From contig JBLHLE010000060.1 of assembly GCA_047620805.1 (NCBI GenBank), positions 1 through 13,568 on the forward strand: a stretch of DNA of 13,568 nt, written 5' to 3'. The position numbers and the translations under genes are program-made. Origin of the DNA: Pirellulaceae bacterium (GTDB taxonomy: Bacteria > Planctomycetota > Planctomycetia > Pirellulales > Pirellulaceae). This document shows positions 2,826-13,400 of this stretch, in pieces. The number at the start of each line of letters is the position of its first letter. The first letter of the stretch is position 1. The notes beneath the pieces are model-generated. The model did no database searches and had not been told where the DNA came from. It was given only the letters and a program-made list of their open reading frames with translations.

Positions 2826-2849
2826 GTCCGAGGGTAGAAGAACCAAGCT

Positions 2850-2880
2850 AGGCGACTCGATCTATCCGATCGGGTCGCCT
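2850..2880 (+). terminator. Strong stem-loop 24 nt downstream of the flotillin stop; possible attenuator, partial terminator or RNA-stabilising hairpin
   Basis: AGGCGACUCGAUC (2850-2862) pairs with GAUCGGGUCGCCU (2868-2880), giving a 13-bp stem with one U-G wobble and a 5-nt loop (UAUCC). The downstream sequence (UCGCUUGAGUCUACUUUCGCUC) is only weakly U-rich, so this is not a canonical intrinsic terminator. Confidence 0.3.
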
Positions 2881-3051
2881 TCGCTTGAGTCTACTTTCGC
2901 TCACCGCACGTAGCGTGACCGTCTGGCCTCAGCGTATCTCGCTCACGCGAATAGCCGGAATCAGTCCCACTACTTGGCACAAGTTGTCCACGCCTAAACC
3001 ACCCACTCCACAATCTTGGCAAGTGACGACGTAACCGACCTGGAAGCTCGC

Positions 3052-6000
3052 ATGTCTGATGCAGAACTAGCCAACGCAACAAAAGACAACGAACAAGTTG
3101 CCTTAGAGGGTGGTACGTACGAGATCATTCGCAACCGCCTCCTCAACCAAGGCGGCGAACTGAAGACACGCCTCGAGAAGCTAAACGCGGGTCGAAAAGA
3201 AGTCTTTGGCTCGATCAACAACGCGTTACTCGGCACCGAACGGATCACCACCGACCACAATTGCGTCCCGCGCGATATGGTCGCGATCGGCAACAAGCTG
3301 ATCTTCGGATACAATGTTCACTTCGGTCTCAAGAGCGAAATAAACGTCGGCGACGTCTTCGCCGTCTACGAATTCAAAGACAAACTGTTTCATGGCCAGT
3401 CGCTGGACATGATCAATCAGGATCAGTTCGTTCGCGATTTCGGCGAAGTCTACCGATATTACAAGAATGCCGAGTTCTCGCGATTCTTCGTCCGCAAGGG
3501 ATTCCTGTACATGGTTTTCCAAGTGGGCCGCGCGGCCAACGACATCAAGTCGCTCAAATGGCTCATCGAAGGAGATTCACTACGCTACATCGATAGCCGT
3601 AGCGACCATGAAGTGAAGCCTCCGCCGCAGTACGACTTCGAGTGGATTCGGACAACCCGAGATCAACACCGCGCCGGTGACCACCCTCATATCTCCATCG
3701 CCGACCGAGTATTTGTCGAGTGCGTTGGCGGCGACCTGACGATCAAGATCGAAAACAACACCGAATCCGGCCAAGGCATTTACGCCGAAGACGTCGACAA
3801 CAAAGACCAAACGCTGGACGACGCCGAAATCTACTACGCCATCGTCGGCAACATCATACTCTTCAAGATCCGCCCTTACCAAGAAAAGCAGTTTCGCTAT
3901 ATCGTCTTTAACGAGAAGATTCAGCGGGCGATCCGTATCGACTCCATTGAGCACTCCTGCGTCCTGCTTCCCGATGACCACGGCTTGATTTTCTCCAACG
4001 GCTACTACTTACAAGACGGCGAGTACAAGACTTTTGAGAACGAACTGACGGACATGAAATTCGAGCGACGAGTTCTCGCTCAAAACGGCGAAGACTATCT
4101 CTACGTCTTCTACAACACTATTGCTGGTGTGTACGTCCAACTGCATTACAACTTGATTCAGCAAAAAGTCGACACGCCACTGATCTGTCACGGTTCGACG
4201 TTTTTCGACGGCGGCGAAATGTTGTGTTTCAAAACACACGACGAACCGCAAAAGCACCACGCCATCCAGATTTGGCAAACGCCATACGTGGGTCAAGACT
4301 ACATCCCGCACACGAATACCGACTCGTTTCTGTACAAGATCGGTAACCGCGACCTGGTCCGCGGCATGGCGGAATGCCACGAGGTCATGTCGCTGATCAA
4401 CAAGGAAGACACTTACGAGGGCCTGTACGTTGACCTCGTCCGCAAAGCGGGAGACGTGCTCGACTCGTATTTCTGGATCGGCAACCCGGAAACGCACAAC
4501 CTTGATGAGCCGCTGAAGAAAATTCGATCGACTGCAGAATCTGCGATCGAGGAGTTTGAAAAAGTTGTTCGAGTCAAGCAAAACACCGCAGGTGAAACGA
4601 AGCGAGTCGAAGATCAAACTCGCGAGATGCTGGCAGCATCGCATCATCGACGCTACGACATTATCGACGACTTCGTCACGACACTCGGCGACCTCCGCGG
4701 AGCGCGAGGGGAAGTCATTTCGCTGAAAGAACGCAAGTACGTCAACCACGCGTTACTCGAATCGCTCGAGAAAGAGGTTGCCGAGCAAAGCGAAAAAGTC
4801 GCTCAGAGATGCGTCCAATTCCTGCTCGACCCCAAAGCGCTCGGACCGTATCAAAAACGAGTTAACGAACATGTCGAGTTAATTCCACCGCTCCGAAAGG
4901 TGACGGCGGCCAAAGAACTGGAAGGGAAAATCTCCGACAGCGCCGCTGAACTTGAGATGTTGATCGACATCGTCAGCAATCTCAAGATCGACGACGCCAC
5001 CCACCGCACAACCATTATTGACAACATCTCGGTCATCTTCTCAACGATCAATCAGGCGCGAGCCGCGATCAAGACGAAGAAGAAGGATCTGATGTCGGTC
5101 GAAGGCGTCGCCGAATTCAATTCGCAAATGAAGCTGTTGAATCAAGGCGTCGTCAACTACTTAGACATCTGTGACAGTCCCGAGAAATGCGAAGAATTTC
5201 TTACCAAGGTCATGATTCAGCTCGAAGAGCTGGAAGGCCGCTTCGCAGAGTTTGACGAGTTCGTCATTCAACTGACGGACAAACGCGAAGAGATTTACAA
5301 CGCCTTTGAGACTCGAAAACTTTCGCTAATTGAAGCTCGAAATAGACGAGCGAGCTCGTTGATGTCCGCCGCCGAGCGGATTCTCAAGGGAATTAAATCT
5401 CGCGCCGATGGCATGGAGTCGGTCAACGACATCAATTCCTATTTTGCTGCGGACTTGATGATCGAGAAGATCCGCGACATTACGGGTCAATTGACGAAGT
5501 TAGACGACAACGTCAAAGTCGACGACATCCAAAGTCGCTTGAAGACGATCAAAGAAGACGCTGTACGCCAACTCAAGGACCGCCAAGACCTATTCGTCGG
5601 TGGCGCGAATATTATTCAGCTGGGGCAACATCGCTTCTCGGTCAACGTACAGCAGCTCGACCTCACGACGGTCCTCCGCGACGGCGAAATGCAGTTCCAT
5701 TTAACTGGCACTAATTTCTTCGAGAACATCGAAGACGAACTGTTGCTGTCGACCCGCCAGGTGTGGGACCAAGAAGTCATCTCGGAAACTCCGCAAGTCT
5801 ACCGCGGTGAATACTTAGCCTATCGCATCCACGAAGAGCTGGCGGGAAACACCGCCCCGTCGCTGCAAGACTTAGCCAACTTCAGCGACGAAGAGTTGTC
5901 CGCGTTCGTGCAAAGTTTTATGGGTCCACGTTACACCGAGGCCTACGTCAAGGGCGTCCACGATCAAGACGGAGCCAAGATCCTTCGTTGTCTGCTGGAA

Positions 6001-8580
6001 ATGAAATTCAGTATCGGCCTGTTGCGTTACCATTCAATCGCGCGATCGTTGGCTCGAGCCTATTGGAATAACTTCTGCGGCGGTGAACAGAAGGAACTGA
6101 TGTCGGCGAAGCTGCGAGGGTTCGGCACGATAAGTCAATTGTTCCCCGACTCGTCCGCGCAAATGGAATACGTCAAGCAGCTTCGCGGCATGATGAAAGA
6201 CTTCATCAACTGGTCCGGACTCTACGACGCCGAGTGGGTGCCGCCAGCTGCAGAGTATCTGTTCTACGAATTATCGGGGGGCGCGGGCTTTGCAACCAGC
6301 CGGATCGCGACCGACCTCTTCGACGAATTCCACACATTCCTACGCAGCAACACTTATGAAGAAAAATTCTCGCAAACAATGAAAGATGTCGCCGAAGATT
6401 CAGTGAGCAGCGTCCAATTGGCGCGAGATTGGATGTCGGCTTTCGTGGCGAACCGCCCCGACGCCAACGAAACTCAGGACTACATTGACGAAGCCGCCGT
6501 GTTATTGGTAGACGGAAAAGTGAATCGCGAACTGGTCGTCGATGGCCAAGTGCGACGCCAGCTGGATAGCATGATCGGTGCTCATGGAGTCATTCAGCAA
6601 CACAAGTATCACGTCAATTTCAACCAGTTCTTTGAAAAGCTGAATAAGTACGAACGAGAAATCGTGCCGCTATATCGGACATACATTGAACGCAAAAAGG
6701 AGATCGTCGACCATCAGCGCGAAGGCATGAAGCTCGACGAATTCAAACCTCGCGTGCTGACCTCGTTTGTCCGCAACAAGTTGATCGACGAAGTTTACCT
6801 GCCCATTATTGGCGACAATCTTGCCAAGCAAATCGGCGTGATAGGCGAAGGCAAACGCACCGACCTGATGGGATTACTGCTGCTGTTGTCGCCTCCCGGT
6901 TACGGTAAAACGACGTTAATGGAGTACATCGCCAACAGGCTTGGCGTGATCTTCATGAAGATCAATGGTCCGGCGATCGGCCATAACGTCACCTCCTTAG
7001 ACCCCAACGAAGCGCCCAACGCGGGCGCTCGCGAAGAGGTCGAGAAACTGAACTTGTCGCTGGAAATGGGCGACAATGTGATGATCTATCTCGACGATAT
7101 CCAACACTGCAATCCCGAGTTCTTACAGAAGTTCATCTCGCTTTGCGACGGGCAGCGAAAGATCGAAGGCGTCTACAAGGGTCGCACGCGAACCTACGAT
7201 CTACGCGGTCGCAAGGTGATCGTCGTCATGGCGGGCAACCCCTATACCGAAAGCGGCGAAAAGTTCCAGATCCCCGACATGCTCGCTAACCGGGCAGACG
7301 TATACAACTTGGGCGAGATCATCGGCGAAACCGCTCGAGCGTTCGAGATGAGTTACTTGGAAAACTGCCTGACTTCAAGCGCCGCACTGAATCGACTTGC
7401 GAGTCGCAGTCAGCAAGACGTCTACTCGATTATCAAAATCGCTGAGACCGACGACCGCGAGGGAATCGAGCTGGAAGGTTCGTACTCGTTGGAAGATGTT
7501 AGCGAAATGGTAACAGTGATGAAGAAACTGATGTACGTTCGGGATATCATCTTGAAGGTAAATCGCGAGTACATTCGTTCTGCCGCCCAATCCGACGACT
7601 ATCGAACCGAGCCACCGTTCAAACTGCAAGGTTCATACCGAAACATGAACCGTATCGCAGAGAAAGTCGTTCCAATCATGAACGACGAAGAGCTGCGCAC
7701 GCTCATCTTGTCGAACTACGAGAACGATTCTCAAACTCTGACGTCCGACAACGAAGCCAACATGCTGAAATTCAAAGAGCTAATGGAAATCCTCAACGAA
7801 GAGGAAGCTCTACGATGGGCCTCGATCAAACGAACATTCTCTCAGAATTTGAAAATGAGAGGCATCGATGCGGATGACTCGACCGGCCAAGTTATCTTAC
7901 AACTGCGCGAGTTCAACGACGGGCTCGAATCGATCCGACACGCGTTGAGCGATGGGGTGGCGAAAATCGCCTTTAATCGCCGCGAGCCAGAAGTGAAGCA
8001 GGCAGATCCAAGTCCACAGTTAGAAGAGCTAGTCGCCAACATCGGCAGTTTGCGAGATGGGCTGCACGGCATTCGAGAAGCGTTATCCGGCGGTATTTCG
8101 GAAGAGGCTTTCAAAGATCTTGCGGCTCAACTAAAAGAAATCGCTACGATTGCGCCAGCCCCAGCACTGCCTACAGCGAGCGACGGGCCTGTCGAAGCGC
8201 AGCTGGTGAACCCCGGCGGCGGACTCGACGACTTAACGCCACTCGCATCATCTAGTGCACCGTCGGCCAAAGAGTTAGACAAACTCATTGAAAGAAAGAT
8301 CACCGTACAGCACAAAGTTCCCCGCACGATCCTCAATGTTCTCAAGTCGCAATTTGAGCTGATGCACAACTGGATGGTGCCCATCTTCCACGCTCAGAAA
8401 GAGCAAGGTAAAGACTTCGGCAAATTGCAAAACTCGATGAACCTATGCTTAGACAACTACGAGTCGCTATTAAAAGAGCTCGAGTCCGCTGGCATTCGCA
8501 AGATCCCCAAGAAAAAGCGGGGGGACAAAACGGCGGACGAAACGCCCGAAACGACTCATTTCATCGACGACAATGAGTAG
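3052..8580 (+). CDS. Giant (~1840 aa) uncharacterised protein with a single MoxR/AAA_5-like AAA+ ATPase module; third gene of the NfeD-flotillin cluster
   Basis: A continuous ORF of 1854 codons begins at TTG 3016. The preferred start is ATG 3052, with a GGAAG Shine-Dalgarno 6 nt upstream. Walker A is LLLLLSPPGYGKTTL (nt 6898-6924). Walker B with the flanking AAA_3/AAA_5-type motif is MIYLDDIQHCNPEFLQKFISLCD, comparable to hhDEINRAxPxvQsaLLe. Sensor-1 is VIVVMAGNP. The first ~1250 aa have no motif I can assign; they are mixed beta-rich and coiled-coil. The C-terminal ~450 aa contain a duplicated ~40-aa motif, a Pro/Ala-rich linker and a basic tail (KIPKKKRGDK). Codon usage is uniform with the flanking genes. 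Confidence 0.8.
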   Translation: MSDAELANATKDNEQVALEGGTYEIIRNRLLNQGGELKTRLEKLNAGRKEVFGSINNALLGTERITTDHNCVPRDMVAIGNKLIFGYNVHFGLKSEINVGDVFAVYEFKDKLFHGQSLDMINQDQFVRDFGEVYRYYKNAEFSRFFVRKGFLYMVFQVGRAANDIKSLKWLIEGDSLRYIDSRSDHEVKPPPQYDFEWIRTTRDQHRAGDHPHISIADRVFVECVGGDLTIKIENNTESGQGIYAEDVDNKDQTLDDAEIYYAIVGNIILFKIRPYQEKQFRYIVFNEKIQRAIRIDSIEHSCVLLPDDHGLIFSNGYYLQDGEYKTFENELTDMKFERRVLAQNGEDYLYVFYNTIAGVYVQLHYNLIQQKVDTPLICHGSTFFDGGEMLCFKTHDEPQKHHAIQIWQTPYVGQDYIPHTNTDSFLYKIGNRDLVRGMAECHEVMSLINKEDTYEGLYVDLVRKAGDVLDSYFWIGNPETHNLDEPLKKIRSTAESAIEEFEKVVRVKQNTAGETKRVEDQTREMLAASHHRRYDIIDDFVTTLGDLRGARGEVISLKERKYVNHALLESLEKEVAEQSEKVAQRCVQFLLDPKALGPYQKRVNEHVELIPPLRKVTAAKELEGKISDSAAELEMLIDIVSNLKIDDATHRTTIIDNISVIFSTINQARAAIKTKKKDLMSVEGVAEFNSQMKLLNQGVVNYLDICDSPEKCEEFLTKVMIQLEELEGRFAEFDEFVIQLTDKREEIYNAFETRKLSLIEARNRRASSLMSAAERILKGIKSRADGMESVNDINSYFAADLMIEKIRDITGQLTKLDDNVKVDDIQSRLKTIKEDAVRQLKDRQDLFVGGANIIQLGQHRFSVNVQQLDLTTVLRDGEMQFHLTGTNFFENIEDELLLSTRQVWDQEVISETPQVYRGEYLAYRIHEELAGNTAPSLQDLANFSDEELSAFVQSFMGPRYTEAYVKGVHDQDGAKILRCLLEMKFSIGLLRYHSIARSLARAYWNNFCGGEQKELMSAKLRGFGTISQLFPDSSAQMEYVKQLRGMMKDFINWSGLYDAEWVPPAAEYLFYELSGGAGFATSRIATDLFDEFHTFLRSNTYEEKFSQTMKDVAEDSVSSVQLARDWMSAFVANRPDANETQDYIDEAAVLLVDGKVNRELVVDGQVRRQLDSMIGAHGVIQQHKYHVNFNQFFEKLNKYEREIVPLYRTYIERKKEIVDHQREGMKLDEFKPRVLTSFVRNKLIDEVYLPIIGDNLAKQIGVIGEGKRTDLMGLLLLLSPPGYGKTTLMEYIANRLGVIFMKINGPAIGHNVTSLDPNEAPNAGAREEVEKLNLSLEMGDNVMIYLDDIQHCNPEFLQKFISLCDGQRKIEGVYKGRTRTYDLRGRKVIVVMAGNPYTESGEKFQIPDMLANRADVYNLGEIIGETARAFEMSYLENCLTSSAALNRLASRSQQDVYSIIKIAETDDREGIELEGSYSLEDVSEMVTVMKKLMYVRDIILKVNREYIRSAAQSDDYRTEPPFKLQGSYRNMNRIAEKVVPIMNDEELRTLILSNYENDSQTLTSDNEANMLKFKELMEILNEEEALRWASIKRTFSQNLKMRGIDADDSTGQVILQLREFNDGLESIRHALSDGVAKIAFNRREPEVKQADPSPQLEELVANIGSLRDGLHGIREALSGGISEEAFKDLAAQLKEIATIAPAPALPTASDGPVEAQLVNPGGGLDDLTPLASSSAPSAKELDKLIERKITVQHKVPRTILNVLKSQFELMHNWMVPIFHAQKEQGKDFGKLQNSMNLCLDNYESLLKELESAGIRKIPKKKRGDKTADETPETTHFIDDNE
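6840..7330 (+). other. AAA+ (MoxR/AAA_5-like) ATPase module inside the giant ORF
   Basis: In linear order there is a P-loop GYGKTT, Walker B hhhhDD followed by IQHCNPEFLQKF, Sensor-1 asparagine in MAGNP, and then a helical lid region (ADVYNLGEIIGETARAFEMSYLEN). It is a single module, not a tandem hexamer-of-dimers arrangement. Confidence 0.7.
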
Positions 8581-8596: not shown

Positions 8597-8675
8597 CAGA
8601 GCGTCCGGGAAGATCAGAGCGTCCGGGAAGATCAGAGCGTCCGGGAAGATCAGAGCGTCCGGGAAGATCAGAGCG
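8597..8675. repeat. Tandem direct repeat, 18-bp unit CAGAGCGTCCGGGAAGAT x4 perfect copies plus a partial 5th
   Basis: Read directly from the sequence: perfect copies at 8597-8614, 8615-8632, 8633-8650 and 8651-8668, then CAGAGCG and divergence. It starts 17 nt after the stop codon of the giant ORF, in the convergent intergenic region 8581-8710. Confidence 0.92.
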
Positions 8676-8710: not shown

Positions 8711-10901
8711 CTACTGAGTGAGCGTTTCGGCTAGTTCGTTGGCAATCAGATCCGCGATTAGTTCATTTCCTTTTTGGTTCGGATGAACGCCATCGCCAGT
8801 CAAAATACCCATGTTCGCGAATTCGATGTCGCCGTTAACTCTCAATTCAACATTGTGATTCTTCAAATAGTTAACGAACGCAGTGCGAAGATCGACGAGT
8901 GGTACGCTCTGTTGGCGAGCCACCTTGCGGGTTAACTCGGCGAACTGATCGCAGAGTTTGTCTTTTTCGTTGGAGCCATCGGGGCGCTCTCTGTAAACGG
9001 CGAGCGTCGTGAAGATTAGTTTCGTTCCGTTGGCGGCTGCAGCTTTGTGCAGGTCGACTAGTGCCTGTTCAAAGTCTTGCGGACTTGTCTTTCGCCACCA
9101 AACATCGTTGATACCGATGTACACCACGGCCACATCTGCCTTGTCGTTCTGGATAACCTTGGCGAACGATTCTTGTTTGCCATCCTTGTTGCCATCCTTG
9201 TTTGCCATCCTTGTTGCCATCCTTGTTGCCATCCTTGTTGCCATCCTTGTTGCCGGAGTCGATGTAGGCGGCCTTTTCGACTCCATCGCGAACTGAGAGC
9301 ACGCCGCCGCCGTTGATTCCGTGGTTGAGTAGCTTCACATCCTTGGCCGTCGTTGGCAGCGCCTTTTCAATTAGCGAAATAAATCCGTTTTGCCAAGTGA
9401 TCGAATCCCCAAAGAACGAGATTCGTTTTCCGTCGGGGATCTTCGCGGAGGTGAGTTTGGCGCGGCCTGCGATGTTAAATGAGAGCGACCGTTTCTGCTT
9501 GGCAGAATCCGACATATCGAAAGGCGAATCAAGCGGCTCGACGACATTCATTGCGGGTTTTAGATTGCCATCTTGGTCAATCGAGGCGCGATAGACTCCT
9601 GGTTTTCTGCCCTTTGGGTTGCGAAACCCAATTGTCTGCAATTGCGACGGCGTAAGACCGCCGGTGTCGCTTCCAAAACGAACGGTAGAAGCCGCCGCAT
9701 CGAAGCCGTTGATGATTAACTGCTTACTTGAGTCCCAGTTTGCGCCGCTACTGTCGTAAAAACGAATTCTACCGGCCTGTGTAACATCGATACTCGCGTC
9801 GCCATTCAGAAACAGAATGCCAAGATTTTCGCTGTGCCCTTTTAGCCGTAGTTCGACGGACTGCGACTTGGGATCGACAACGACATTTACGGCGTCGGCG
9901 ATCTGGTTGTCGTTTTCCCACTCCAACTTCGCGTGTGTCGTCAGAGTTAATTCACTGGAAATGGCATCGACCCCTGTGGGCTTTGCGAGCGACGTGACAT
10001 TCAGCCGCGGATTTCCCGAACCAATCATCCAGCCAGCCGCAAGCGAATTTGCTTGCCCACCGCCGAGTGTCGTGCCTCCGTTGGTGATGTTTATCCGCCC
10101 TGCCCCGACGATGTCTCCGTGGAGCCTCGTTGGATTCCCTCCGCCGTTATCGACCTGCAACGTCACGCCATCATCGATCTGAAGTCGTCCAGTGTGGGGA
10201 CCGTTGGATATTCCACTGGTAATTACGGAATCTTTGCTGACCGTAATCGGCTCCGTCGACGTATTGCGAATGATGAAGATCTGGCCACCGTCCAAAATGG
10301 TGGGCTGCGAGTCGGAACCAAAACTTCCAGGCGAATGAGTTAGCAGACGGCCCGAACGAATTATCAGCTTGCCAAGCAGTGTTTTCGAGCTATCCGCCGC
10401 AAAGTCGATTGTGCCCGTTTTGTGACCGTCGAAAGTGAGTGTACCGGAGCCGTGAATCTTTCCCGAGATGACGAGCGATTCACCGCCGAGATAGAAGTGA
10501 TTGTGATTGGCCAATGTCGCGTCGCCAAGAAACTCAACGTCGCAGGCAAGCGTCTGCTTGGCCTGCTCCTTAAAGCCGACGGAGTCCATCTTCTTTAACA
10601 CGACGGAGCCATCTTTTTCAATGACTAGCGGGCCGCCGCTAAGCGTGTAACGCCTCTTGTCAGTGGGGTTGAGAAGCAGGTGCGCGATCTGTTGGCGTCC
10701 CACCATCTCGATCGTGGTATCGCTACCAACGGCGGGAAGAATCGCAGAATCGCCGCTGCCCGGAATCTGTTTTGGATTCCAGTTCGCAGCATTTGCCCAC
10801 TGCTCATCGTCGGCTTTTCCAGTCCATGTTATTTCTGCAGCTTGTGTTCCGCTACAAAACAAAACGAAAACGGCGAGCGATAAGAAGAAGCGTGGCAGCA
10901 T
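8711..10901 (-). pseudogene. Secreted SGNH/GDSL-family hydrolase with N-terminal autotransporter-associated beta-strand (beta-helix) repeats, interrupted by a 1-nt frameshift in a coding tandem repeat (or a sequencing error)
   Basis: Two overlapping minus-strand ORFs (9069..10973 and 8711..9286) together encode one protein. The upstream ORF has a signal peptide from ATG 10901 (MLPRFFLSLAVFVLFCSGTQAA|AE), then ITWTGKADDEQWANAANWNP-type passenger-associated repeats, then SGNH block I (FFGDSIT) and block II (NHGINGGG). The downstream ORF supplies block III (YIGINDVWW) and block V (DGVHPN). The two frames switch inside the (NKDG)n repeat, where one repeat unit is 13 nt instead of 12 (extra T at about 9201-9203 on the plus strand). 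The total length of 2191 nt is 3n+1, consistent with a single inserted base. Confidence 0.6.
9179..9251. repeat. Coding tandem repeat, 12-bp unit GCCATCCTTGTT x6 (encodes NKDG on the minus strand), with one 13-bp variant unit causing the frameshift
   Basis: Units at 9179-9190, 9191-9203 (13 bp, extra T), 9204-9215, 9216-9227, 9228-9239 and 9240-9251. Minus-strand translation gives NKDG NKDG NKDG NKDG, then a shift to KQGWQQGWQ. The other frame gives MATRMATR, then NKDGNKDGKQESF leading into the rest of the SGNH domain. Confidence 0.9.
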
Positions 10902-11033
10902 TCGAAAACCCAACTTATGAGACCGGCCAACGTGAAATCCGACCGCGTCAGTATAGATTGGTAACGGCGACAATGCGAGTTTGGCCGCAAGTGAGGACTT
11001 GGACGCGGGAGAAAGAATCGCGGTTTTGATACG

Positions 11034-11085: not shown

Positions 11086-12378
11086 CTAGGCACTTTTTGA
11101 CTTCGGTTCGGGGAACTCAAAAAGCTTGTTACGACCAGATATCACATCTTCGTCGATACGATACGTCTCGCCTTCCTCTTGGTCTGGCAGTTCGTACATG
11201 ATATCCAACATGGCTTCTTCGATGATGCTACGGAGGCCACGAGCACCAGTGCCCTTCTTGAGAGCTAGGTGAGCGATTGCCTGCAGGGCACCTTCGGTGA
11301 ATTCAAGGTGGCTGTTTTCCATCTCGAACAACGTCTCGTACTGCTTTATCAAAGCGTTCTTTGGCTCTGTGAGAACTTTAATGAGTCCTGATTCGTCCAA
11401 CGGCGTTAGTGCTGTGCAAACGGGTAGTCGACCCACGAGTTCGGGGATCAAACCGTATTCCAGGATGTCGTCGGTGCGAAGTTGTGGCAGCAATTCAGCG
11501 AGATCGGCGTCTGCCGCTAGCCCAGTTGCTTCTTGCTGTTGCCCGAAACCCAACGTTCGCGTGCCGAGGCGTTTGCGAATGATGTCTTCAATACCAACAA
11601 ATGTACCACCACAGATAAAGAGAATGTTCGTCGTGTCCATCTGAATGTAATGTTGTTCGGGATGCTTACGGCCACCTTGCGGTGGAACATTAGCAACAGT
11701 TCCTTCCAACATCTTCAACAAAGCTTGTTGAACACCTTCACCGGAGACGTCGCGAGTGATCGACACGTTCTGACTGGTCTTTCCAATCTTGTCGATCTCA
11801 TCGATATAGAGAACGCCGCGTTGAGCAGCTTCTAGATCGAAGTCCGCAGAATGCAACAGCTTGAGTAACAAATTTTCGACGTCTTCGCCGACATAACCTG
11901 CTTCCGTCAAGGTTGTCGCATCACCGATGGCAAAAGGAACATTCAGCACACGTGCCAAAGTTCTTGCCAACAACGTTTTTCCGGATCCTGTTGGGCCGAC
12001 AAGAAGAATATTCGACTTCTCGACTTCAACATTTGAACCTTCCCATCCCAAAGAGAGCCGCTTGTAATGGTTGTGAACCGCCACGGCGAGTACCTTTTTG
12101 GCACTGCCTTGACCGATCACATATTGGTCCATTTGGTTAACTATACTGCGAGGAGTAGGAATCTCACTGAACAACTGCTTCGAGGATCCTCGACGTTTTT
12201 GCTCTTGTTCCAAAATCGACTGGCAAAGGTCGATACACTCGCCACAAATATAAACATCGCCGGGGCCCTCAACTAAAGGTCCCACATCGCGATAACTTTT
12301 TCTACAGAAGGAACAGAAGGCGTTCTTTTTAGTAGTACCGCCTCGTCGTCCCCCCCCCACTTCTTTTCCAGCGGGCAT
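11086..12378 (-). CDS. clpX: ATP-dependent Clp protease ATP-binding subunit ClpX
   Basis: The N-terminal C4 zinc-binding domain (CSFCRKS...[10 protein letters not shown]) is followed by the canonical ClpX AAA+ core ([45 protein letters not shown], Walker [23 protein letters not shown], and a C-terminal [10 protein letters not shown] sensor-2 region). Length is 430 aa. Confidence 0.95.
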
Positions 12379-12642: not shown

Positions 12643-12987
12643 TTAACCCTCTTCATTGTCATCGTTTAACTCGGTCTTGAGTTTTTCTCCCAGCACTGTC
12701 TTTATTGTTCGGTATTCAGAGTCCTCAATGTCACCTTCCTCAAGCATTTCGTGGAAATTGGTCATCGTGTCACTAACGCTTGGCCGGTCGTCATTGATTT
12801 GATCGCGATAGCTTATCGCGATGCGGTATCCAACCGAGATCATTGCACAAAGTATAGCGATCCCAAGCACAAGTTGGGCTTCCGTAGTTTGTAGGAATTG
12901 GGAAAATGACACGGGCGTTTCGACTAGTGAGCGTTTATTCGGTTGACCACAGGAAGCGATGTCAAAAGCGAAGTGCAATCGTGACAT
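12643..12987 (-). CDS. Small membrane protein with C-terminal SHOCT-like domain (start uncertain; the longest ORF extends to 13179)
   Basis: ORF 12643..13179. An internal ATG at 12987 (MSRLHF...), preceded by a GGGAGA-like Shine-Dalgarno, gives a ~114-aa protein with one TM helix (LVLGIAILCAMISVGY) and a C-terminal LEEGDIEDSEYRTIKTVLGEKL segment that matches the SHOCT motif pattern (L..G.It.eEY...K..L). No other homology was recognised. Confidence 0.45.
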   Translation of the reverse strand: MSRLHFAFDIASCGQPNKRSLVETPVSFSQFLQTTEAQLVLGIAILCAMISVGYRIAISYRDQINDDRPSVSDTMTNFHEMLEEGDIEDSEYRTIKTVLGEKLKTELNDDNEEG

Positions 12988-13400
12988 ATTGCCTGATACA
13001 TATCTCCCGGATATTATGCAAAAAGTGCTCACTAAGTCCAGAATCCGTAATCCGTATTCCTTAACTCGTGCTGGCCGTTGGCTTTGCGTTTGGTAAGTGA
13101 ATGGAATACAAAGATCGGACACATGGGGCTTCCGCTCAGTCTGATCACGCAGACTGTCGGGATTCGCCACAGTTGACACTCTAGCAATGCCGCGCTAGGC
13201 TGATGCAGCACCGGCCTAATTTCGGCCCCTAGCGAGCGAAGTTAGCCAGATTTGGCGAACTTAATGGAGTTTGCCAGCCATGCTGGGCAACCTCACTTAA
13301 CTCACAGGCCATTTCCCTGAAGAAGATACGAAGTCCGTTTCGTATAGCGTTCATTGCTCAGATCTAGTTACGTCCCTGCCTCCCCAATGGTTCAGAGAAT

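Follow-up and report, generated by a model that had tools for sequence, protein, structure and literature searches.

Here, we describe a three-gene locus in a 13,568-bp contig from a metagenome-assembled genome (MAG) of a Pirellulaceae bacterium; this whole stretch of DNA is referred to below as the window. The three genes follow each other on the plus strand and encode a small YqiJ/YuaF-type membrane protein (gene 1), a flotillin-type SPFH protein (gene 2), and a giant AAA+ ATPase (gene 3), whose long N-terminal arm is the main subject of this work. The open reading frame (ORF) of the giant ATPase spans 3016-8580 (+) and opens with a TTG codon at 3016. We place the start at the ATG codon at 3052, in agreement with the NCBI/JGI protein ACI9HK_000738 (1842 amino acids [aa], 100% identity) and with the starts of aligned homologs. 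A hydrophobic transmembrane (TM) segment was looked for in the giant ATPase and none was found; it is a soluble protein encoded beside two membrane proteins.

The two partners were identified with differing ease. The Pfam match of the gene 1 product to YqiJ_N is weak (E=0.0017, under the cut-off), and the protein possesses hydrophobic segments at aa 14-39 and 66-94. It shares 35% identity (tblastn) with a Hymenobacter protein annotated as "DUF1449 family protein" and encoded at the same operon position. The gene 2 product combines an N-terminal TM helix (segment at aa 1-32) with an SPFH domain and a long coiled coil rich in E, A, K, and Q. Band_7 (PF01145) was matched with E=3.4e-11 when aa 1-252 were scanned alone, and the full-length Pfam scan gave no Band_7 match, a silence that is probably due to the long low-complexity coiled coil. 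Homologs of this protein carry the annotations "SPFH domain-containing protein" and "flotillin family protein." Genes 1 and 2 are separated by 10 nucleotides (nt) and genes 2 and 3 by 226 nt (2826-3051), and promoter-like or terminator-like matches across the operon occurred at chance level only.

Domain architecture of the giant ATPase

An earlier note on this DNA, made from the sequence alone, had claimed that the N-terminal arm of about 1250 aa lacks a catalytic motif, and our searches bear this out. Walker A, HEXXH, DEAD/DExH, GxSxG, and CxxC motifs were all absent from aa 1-1263 in a regular-expression scan, and no enzymatic domain was found in this region with Pfam, NCBIfam, or PADLOC. 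The scan did return one "GDSL" string (aa 174), as well as several matches to HNH-like and PD-(D/E)xK-like patterns, which were self-made and deliberately loose. The serine of the GDSL string is not kept in the family consensus, and the sole loose-pattern match with conserved residues (aa 307-336, consensus LPExHGxIFPxGYYLxxGExKxF) lies within the beta domain described below. Being loose and poorly conserved, all of these matches were taken as chance.

The arm is nonetheless recognizable. It contains no characterized catalytic domain, but portions of it are covered by two Pfam families, both of unknown function: DUF3686 (PF12458) at aa 36-474 (window 3157-4473; E=1.6e-190, 633.8 bits versus a cut-off of 25, profile positions 1-448 of 448) and DUF7902 (PF25472) at aa 595-678 (window 4834-5085; E=1e-26, 93.4 bits versus a cut-off of 26). 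Pfam gave no match at E<=10 for aa 817-1263, and the Pfam spectrin family (PF00435) gave none at E<=0.1 in the giant ATPase. When the PDB was searched with the single sequence and with a family profile, the matches were marginal and confined to the Walker A region of Rix7, p97, and RuvB, apart from a syntaxin Habc match (E 0.02), likewise marginal, which was dismissed as helical-bundle noise.

The ATPase lies about two-thirds of the way along the protein, as the note had stated: Pfam AAA (PF00004) was matched at aa 1276-1397 (E=1e-6, 29.7 bits versus a cut-off of 21.2), with Walker A at aa 1280-1288, at about 70% of the length. Its assignment to the AAA_5/MoxR type was not upheld. AAA_5 was matched less well than PF00004, with E=1.7e-4 and 22.1 bits in the whole protein, which is at the cut-off of 22, and with 25.7 bits for the isolated module. 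Members of the MoxR group measure about 300-350 aa, carry an N-terminal AAA domain, and are paired with VWA proteins. The weak AAA_5 match is what the giant ATPase shares with them, whereas its AAA module does not start until aa ~1262 of 1842, the window lacks a VWA gene, and PF00004 scores higher. The best PDB sequence matches of the module were Rix7, p97/Cdc48, and RuvB, restricted to the Walker A region at E~1e-4.

The AAA module is the most conserved part of the giant ATPase. The motifs SPPGYGKTT, LDDIQH, AGNPYTE, and LANRAD are all present, and they are invariant or nearly so in 70 representatives. Judged by position, N1396 is a candidate for sensor 1 and R1414 a candidate for the arginine finger, a residue for which the earlier note had advised a check. 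Because the residues of Walker A, Walker B, and the sensor-1 and arginine-finger candidates are invariant, the ATPase is probably active. The LDDIQH sequence resembles the DDIQ Walker B of DnaA-type initiators. A tandem degenerate AAA domain and a nuclease, both considered in the note, were not found in the arm. When the N-terminal segments were compared one by one with the AAA module by hhalign, the probability never exceeded 0.3% (0.3% for aa 850-1262), and the secondary structure of aa 850-1262 is all-alpha with small hairpins and not Rossmann-like; on these grounds, a degenerate second AAA domain preceding the AAA module was ruled out.

Two AlphaFold2 models, built on 74-sequence alignments (A1 and A2), provide a view of the arm. 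Both display the alternation of beta-rich and helical stretches that the note had read from the sequence, where it quoted peptides now placed at aa 349-372, 380-396, and 725-767. Model 1 (aa 1-510) has a mean predicted local distance difference test score (pLDDT) of 91.1 and a predicted template modeling score (pTM) of 0.88. It comprises a 50-residue N-terminal helix, about 30 strands distributed over aa 58-409, and helices at aa 426-509, and the N-terminal helix probably packs with the helices following the beta domain into a helical bundle. A Foldseek search of the PDB with this model returned 225 matches at E<=1e-3, and the top ones were all beta-propellers (Elp, Vps18, Vps11, CyRPA, virginiamycin B lyase, DCAF1, KLHDC3, PON1, and IFT-A). 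These propeller matches have a probability of 1.0 over about 380-420 columns, yet their TM-scores are low (0.13-0.41). No sequence repeat was detected among the putative blades with hhalign. From the model, we conclude that the head is likely propeller-like but irregular or highly diverged.

Model 2 (aa 480-1265) has a mean pLDDT of 90.1; its pTM is only 0.59, as expected because the chain is elongated. Long helices at aa 485-847 are followed by a five-strand beta unit (aa 854-892) and by thirteen further helices (aa 918-1155). Another small beta unit (aa 1168-1189) then precedes the connector helices, which reach aa 1261. The note had proposed a comparison with dynein/midasin linkers, dynamin-like proteins, and SMC-like coiled coils. 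Among the 60 best chains listed in the structural search with model 2, there was no dynein/midasin linker, dynamin, SMC arm, nuclease, or AAA domain. Proteins of the dynein/midasin type are defined by multiple concatenated AAA domains and a linker, an arrangement not found in the giant ATPase. The modeled rod resembles spectrin, plakin, and nesprin rods at 7-12% sequence identity and with a high root-mean-square deviation over multi-repeat alignments, and hhalign among the rod segments detected no sequence-level repeat. As modeled, this likeness is a structural analogy rather than demonstrated homology.

Conservation in the arm is centered on the beta domain. Q253, E278, G346, G388, and H403 are invariant, and R29, R48, D75, E246, D257, R282, R295, D297, E347, D348, T410, and N432 are nearly invariant. 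In the all-alpha domain preceding the AAA module, the motif GVHDxDA (aa 968-974, window 5953-5973) is the only strongly conserved polar cluster; G968, H970, and D973 are invariant and D971 and A974 nearly so in alignment A2. The features of the locus are compiled in Table 1.

Table 1. Features of the three-gene locus and of the giant ATPase, in window coordinates
Feature	Position	Strand	Basis
Gene 1, YqiJ/YuaF (NfeD-like, DUF1449-type) small membrane protein, 206 aa	113..733	+	weak Pfam YqiJ_N, hydrophobic segments, tblastn
Gene 2, flotillin-type SPFH (Band-7) protein, 693 aa	744..2825	+	Band_7 PF01145, TM segment, annotated homologs
Gene 3, soluble giant AAA+ ATPase, 1842 aa, DUF3686-DUF7902-AAA family	3052..8580	+	ORF, Pfam
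N-terminal long helix, aa 3-52 (predicted)	3058..3207	+	AlphaFold2 model
Beta-propeller-like domain, aa 58-409, core of DUF3686 (predicted)	3223..4278	+	AlphaFold2 model, Foldseek
Helices after the propeller-like domain, aa 426-509; head base and rod start (predicted)	4327..4578	+	AlphaFold2 model
Spectrin-repeat-like rod of consecutive three-helix bundles, aa 485-847, includes DUF7902 (predicted)	4504..5592	+	AlphaFold2 model
Small all-beta unit, aa 854-892, conserved LGxHRFxVN (predicted)	5611..5727	+	AlphaFold2 model, alignment
All-alpha pre-AAA domain, aa 918-1155, no Pfam family (predicted)	5803..6516	+	AlphaFold2 model, alignment
Second small beta unit and long connector helix, aa 1168-1261; FVRNxL at aa 1239-1244 (predicted)	6553..6834	+	model, alignment
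Single AAA+ module and lid, aa 1262-1600	6835..7851	+	Pfam AAA, alignment
Walker A SPPGYGKTT, aa 1280-1288	6889-6915	+	sequence, alignment
Walker B LDDIQH, aa 1347-1352	7090-7107	+	sequence, alignment
C-terminal tail, aa 1601-1842, variable	7852..8577	+	column conservation 0.07-0.24, gaps 22-79% in family alignment

Family distribution and genomic linkage

The family of the giant ATPase is large. With aa 1-1263 as the query, a word-indexed search returned 5,461 proteins at E<=1e-5. The 120 best are 58-89% identical to the query, and nearly all of these are 1,700-1,890 aa long and share its Pfam families. Among representatives of 50%-identity clusters, an exhaustive HMMER search yielded 1,461 matches at E<=1e-3, including 474 at E<=1e-30, and full-length representatives down to 27% identity were matched in one colinear stretch over aa ~15-1200. 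DUF3686, DUF7902, and AAA occurred together in 21/21 diverse full-length members scanned, and PF00004 was matched in 21 of 22 members. Relatives were detected in at least 580 species in a scan of one genome per species with an alignment of the AAA module (A3), in Planctomycetota, Bacteroidota, Verrucomicrobiota, Desulfobacterota, Kiritimatiellota, and other phyla. Plasmid searches by tblastn added Pseudomonas, Proteus, Vibrio, Photobacterium, Halomonas, Streptomyces, Nonomuraea, and Deinococcus, and the family also spans Pseudomonadota, Actinomycetota, and Deinococcus. A 1711-aa protein in the eukaryotic proteome collection EukProt (g33011.t1) is 60% identical to the planctomycete protein across the whole N-terminal region; we suspect that it represents bacterial contamination rather than a eukaryotic homolog.

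The earlier note had regarded the late position of the ATPase as unusual and, by implication, novel. This position is invariant in the large family, and as judged from the aligned sequences it is the fixed design of an old, large family and not an oddity of the window protein. Moreover, both the architecture and the operon are already on record. A 2024 survey of phage shock protein (PSP) systems in mSystems (PMC11237479) reported CesT/Tir-PspA-YqiJ/YuaF-Band-7/flotillin operons with a "Betapropeller+Coiled-coil+AAA-ATPase" protein, found abbreviated operons without PspA to be widespread, and proposed a role in ATP-dependent sub-membrane dynamics and chaperone-like assembly. The window agrees with this description in its Pfam families, domain order, and operon partners, and nothing essential differs. 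It displays the "abbreviated" form (YqiJ-like, flotillin, ATPase), with a view that starts 112 nt before gene 1, so that any PspA gene further upstream falls outside it; the CesT/Tir-PspA dyad of the full form was found in a Hymenobacter locus. The architecture and operon context have thus been published, in a computational study, and the window adds another member and structural detail. What is added comprises the predicted spectrin-like rod, a pre-AAA domain of about 240 aa that is predicted to be all-alpha, the ruling out of another AAA domain, counts that put the linkage to flotillin genes into figures, a case against the family name "DNA repair ATPase" used by NCBI, and a set of invariant residues. 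In the literature searched, no paper mentioned DUF3686, PF12458, or DUF7902, and neither a 2009 paper on SPFH evolution nor a 2026 paper on Pseudomonas aeruginosa SPFH proteins mentioned the giant ATPase.

Linkage to the flotillin-type gene was counted in 57 loci of other species, taken from the species scan and each offering at least 3.5 kb of upstream sequence. In 52 of these 57 loci, the gene immediately upstream encodes an SPFH homolog and shares the strand, and the gap between this gene and the ATPase gene has a median of about 150 nt, extending up to 1.5 kb across related loci. A YqiJ-like gene was detectable in 44/57 loci, and a PspA gene was present in 13/57, mostly in Bacteroidota as judged by record titles. 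Symmachiella dynata and another planctomycete also carry the three-gene cluster, there surrounded by genes that are otherwise unrelated, and it is found on plasmids as well, namely pQBR103 of Pseudomonas fluorescens SBW25, a Hymenobacter plasmid, and a Streptomyces plasmid. In Proteus, an SPFH homolog is encoded just upstream of the ATPase gene. These data show that the giant ATPase is strongly linked to a flotillin-type SPFH gene across phyla and that some lineages add a link to PspA.

On two of the plasmids, the cluster is embedded in larger gene sets. On pQBR103 (stretch 1043-14247), it is preceded by genes annotated as encoding a YjfI family protein, PspA/IM30, a rhomboid protease, DUF2491, DUF350, and DUF1190 proteins, and a glutathionylspermidine synthase family protein. 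On the Hymenobacter plasmid (stretch 4598-13911), it is preceded by genes for a "molecular chaperone Tir" and PspA/IM30. The joining of the cluster to PspA envelope-stress sets on these two large plasmids suggests that the whole module is mobile.

Proposed role and alternative explanations

Taking architecture and linkage together, we lean towards the view that the arm is the non-catalytic part of a flotillin-linked soluble AAA+ ATPase that would remodel sub-membrane lattices. Going by sequence and gene context, the most likely role of the protein is that of a cytoplasmic remodeling ATPase for flotillin/PspA membrane assemblies, and not DNA repair. In the predicted structure, the DUF3686 head would be a propeller-like domain inserted in a helical bundle and borne by a rod of about 360 residues of spectrin-like three-helix bundles, which includes DUF7902; a small beta unit and the all-alpha domain would join this rod to the one C-terminal AAA+ module. 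The YqiJ/NfeD-like and flotillin-type SPFH proteins encoded by genes 1 and 2 would reside in the inner membrane. The AAA+ modules might oligomerize, with the arm acting as a partner-recognition and spacing device. The propeller heads on their rods would bind the cytoplasmic coiled-coil/flotillin part of the SPFH assembly and, where these are co-encoded, also PspA/ESCRT-III polymers. ATP hydrolysis could then drive the assembly, remodeling, or disassembly of sub-membrane lattices at the cytoplasmic face during envelope stress.

Such a logic would be analogous to that of Vps4 acting on ESCRT-III or of FtsH within HflK/C. Vps4 remodels ESCRT-III, and SPFH cages partner the AAA+ protease FtsH in the case of HflK/C. 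The window shares with FtsH-HflK/C the genetic coupling of an AAA+ ATPase to an SPFH protein, together with an NfeD-type partner; however, its ATPase is cytoplasmic and lacks a protease domain and a TM anchor, and FtsH in turn lacks the N-terminal arm of 1260 aa. The resemblance to Vps4/CdvC consists in the presence of the family's AAA+ ATPase gene beside a PspA/IM30 gene in some genomes and in PF00004 as the best Pfam match. Unlike Vps4, the giant ATPase has no MIT domain, its putative substrate-recognition part is a propeller on a rod, its Walker B reads DD, and its AAA module bears no more than a marginal resemblance to the classical clade (E~1e-4, Walker A region). With regard to the classical AAA clade as a whole (Cdc48/Vps4/FtsH-like), the PF00004 match is above the gathering score. 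This clade is further marked by a Walker B of the form hhhhDE, an aromatic pore loop 1, and a second region of homology; in the giant ATPase, Walker B reads DD, the pore-loop position carries no aromatic residue, and the alignments with PDB chains span the Walker A region only.

A bolder version of this idea would make the entire family a dedicated ATP-driven remodeler or disassemblase of flotillin (SPFH) cages and PspA/ESCRT-III polymers, built as a soluble ring with spectrin-like rods and propeller tips. We put this forward tentatively, as a prospect that we regard as possible and rather doubtful. If true, the family would be a bacterial counterpart of Vps4 with entirely different substrate-recognition parts. 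In the literature searched, no bacterial ATPase dedicated to the assembly and recycling of flotillin platforms and PspA/Vipp1 (ESCRT-III) polymers was found, apart from the occasional AAA+ gene associations in PMC11237479.

Several observations weigh against a remodeling role. The literature searched provides no experimental study of any family member, be it on interaction, localization, ATPase activity, or phenotype, and five of the 57 loci lack an adjacent SPFH gene. The Walker B motif carries DD instead of the usual DE, with both D1348 and D1349 invariant across the family, and this may mean slow or regulated hydrolysis or a switch-like ATPase. At the position of pore loop 1 (GHxVTSLDP), no aromatic residue was seen by inspection, and a classic threading unfoldase is therefore not clearly indicated. 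Finally, many of the polar residues that are invariant or nearly so lie in the propeller (Q253, E278, H403, E246, D257, D297, E347, and D348), and they could form a catalytic rather than a binding site.

The unusual Walker B and the missing pore-loop aromatic would also fit a structural sub-membrane skeleton, in which spectrin-like rods cross-link flotillin platforms and the AAA+ module serves as a nucleotide-controlled oligomerization hub. The spectrin-repeat-like appearance of the rod and the coupling of the giant ATPase to a flotillin scaffold are in line with this picture. However, the residues related to hydrolysis (Walker A, Walker B, the sensor-1 asparagine, and the candidate arginine finger) are all invariant, which argues for real ATP turnover, and we consider a purely structural role unlikely.

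It is likewise conceivable, and in our estimation improbable, that the propeller itself is an enzyme, such as a lactonase, lyase, or hydrolase, which the rod and the AAA+ module would only regulate or localize. This would account for the clustering of invariant polar residues in the beta domain, and virginiamycin B lyase, paraoxonase-1, and the putative hydrolase 2qe8 are among the structural matches. However, the best-scoring structural matches are mostly scaffolds (Elp, Vps18/Vps11, DCAF1, KLHDC3, and IFT-A), sequence identity to any enzyme is only 7-13% with no common active-site motif demonstrated, the regular-expression scan gave no metal-binding or catalytic signature, and conservation along the protein is highest in the AAA+ module and not in the propeller.

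A conflict or antiphage module, in which a propeller-sensor ATPase would trigger membrane disruption via the SPFH and YqiJ proteins and thereby cause abortive infection, appears just as improbable. Large multidomain nucleoside triphosphatases with repeat sensors are typical of conflict systems, copies of the module reside on large plasmids (pQBR103 and those of Hymenobacter, Streptomyces, and Deinococcus), and the wider neighborhood is variable. Nevertheless, PADLOC returned only P-loop-level matches (E~2e-3), and the window contains no effector domain, be it a nuclease, a protease, TIR, or another type. In many phyla, the operon forms part of the chromosomal core as a single copy, and it is linked to PspA envelope-stress genes. 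Its sequence is also highly conserved, with 67-86% identity in the AAA module among the 80 loci of other phyla, unlike fast-diversifying defense genes.

A DNA repair ATPase acting on DNA in the manner of SbcC, Rad50, SMC, or RecN, in which the helical region would be a coiled coil that bridges DNA, is very improbable: those proteins are characterized by an ABC head split by an antiparallel coiled coil and by an N-terminal Walker A, whereas the giant ATPase has neither, the PDB sequence and profile searches gave no Rad50, SbcC, SMC, or RecN chain, the RuvB match is confined to the P-loop, the helices are modeled as spectrin-like three-helix bundles and not as a long antiparallel two-helix arm, and the conserved neighbors encode membrane proteins (SPFH, YqiJ, and PspA), with no DNA-metabolism genes among them. 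The name "DNA repair ATPase" finds no support in these data and, we infer, most probably goes back to a resemblance of the coiled coil to that of SbcC-type proteins. It is misleading for a flotillin-linked family, and its correction would be useful.

Other features of the window

The remaining part of the window encodes proteins on the minus strand. A ClpX homolog (zf-C4_ClpX and AAA_2) is encoded at 11086-12378 (-), and a 178-aa ORF at 12643-13179 (-) has a weak match to SHOCT_2 (E=0.006, under the cut-off). SHOCT domains are listed among the PSP-associated domains in PMC11237479. Both the ClpX homolog and the SHOCT_2-like ORF are probably unrelated to the operon.

Between these genes and the giant ATPase gene lies a region that appears to hold a split gene. 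A 634-aa ORF at 9069-10973 (-) ends with block I of an SGNH/GDSL domain (FFGDSIT) and a GINGG block, and the remaining GDSL domain (Pfam profile positions 41-178) is found in a different frame in the ORF at 8711-9286 (-). A 12-bp tandem repeat, reading GATGGCAACAAG on the minus strand and encoding DGNK, is present at 9172-9254 in about 6.8 copies with two single-base insertions. The region 8711-10973 (-) has the appearance of a single gene that codes for a secreted protein ending in an SGNH hydrolase and that frameshifts within the repeat have broken up, and it may represent a pseudogene, slippage-prone variation, or an assembly error. A second, perfect tandem repeat of 18 bp, CAGAGCGTCCGGGAAGAT, is present in 4.4 copies with 100% matches at window positions 8597-8675. 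It is situated in the convergent gap between the stop of the giant gene at 8580 and the end of the minus-strand GDSL ORF at 8711.

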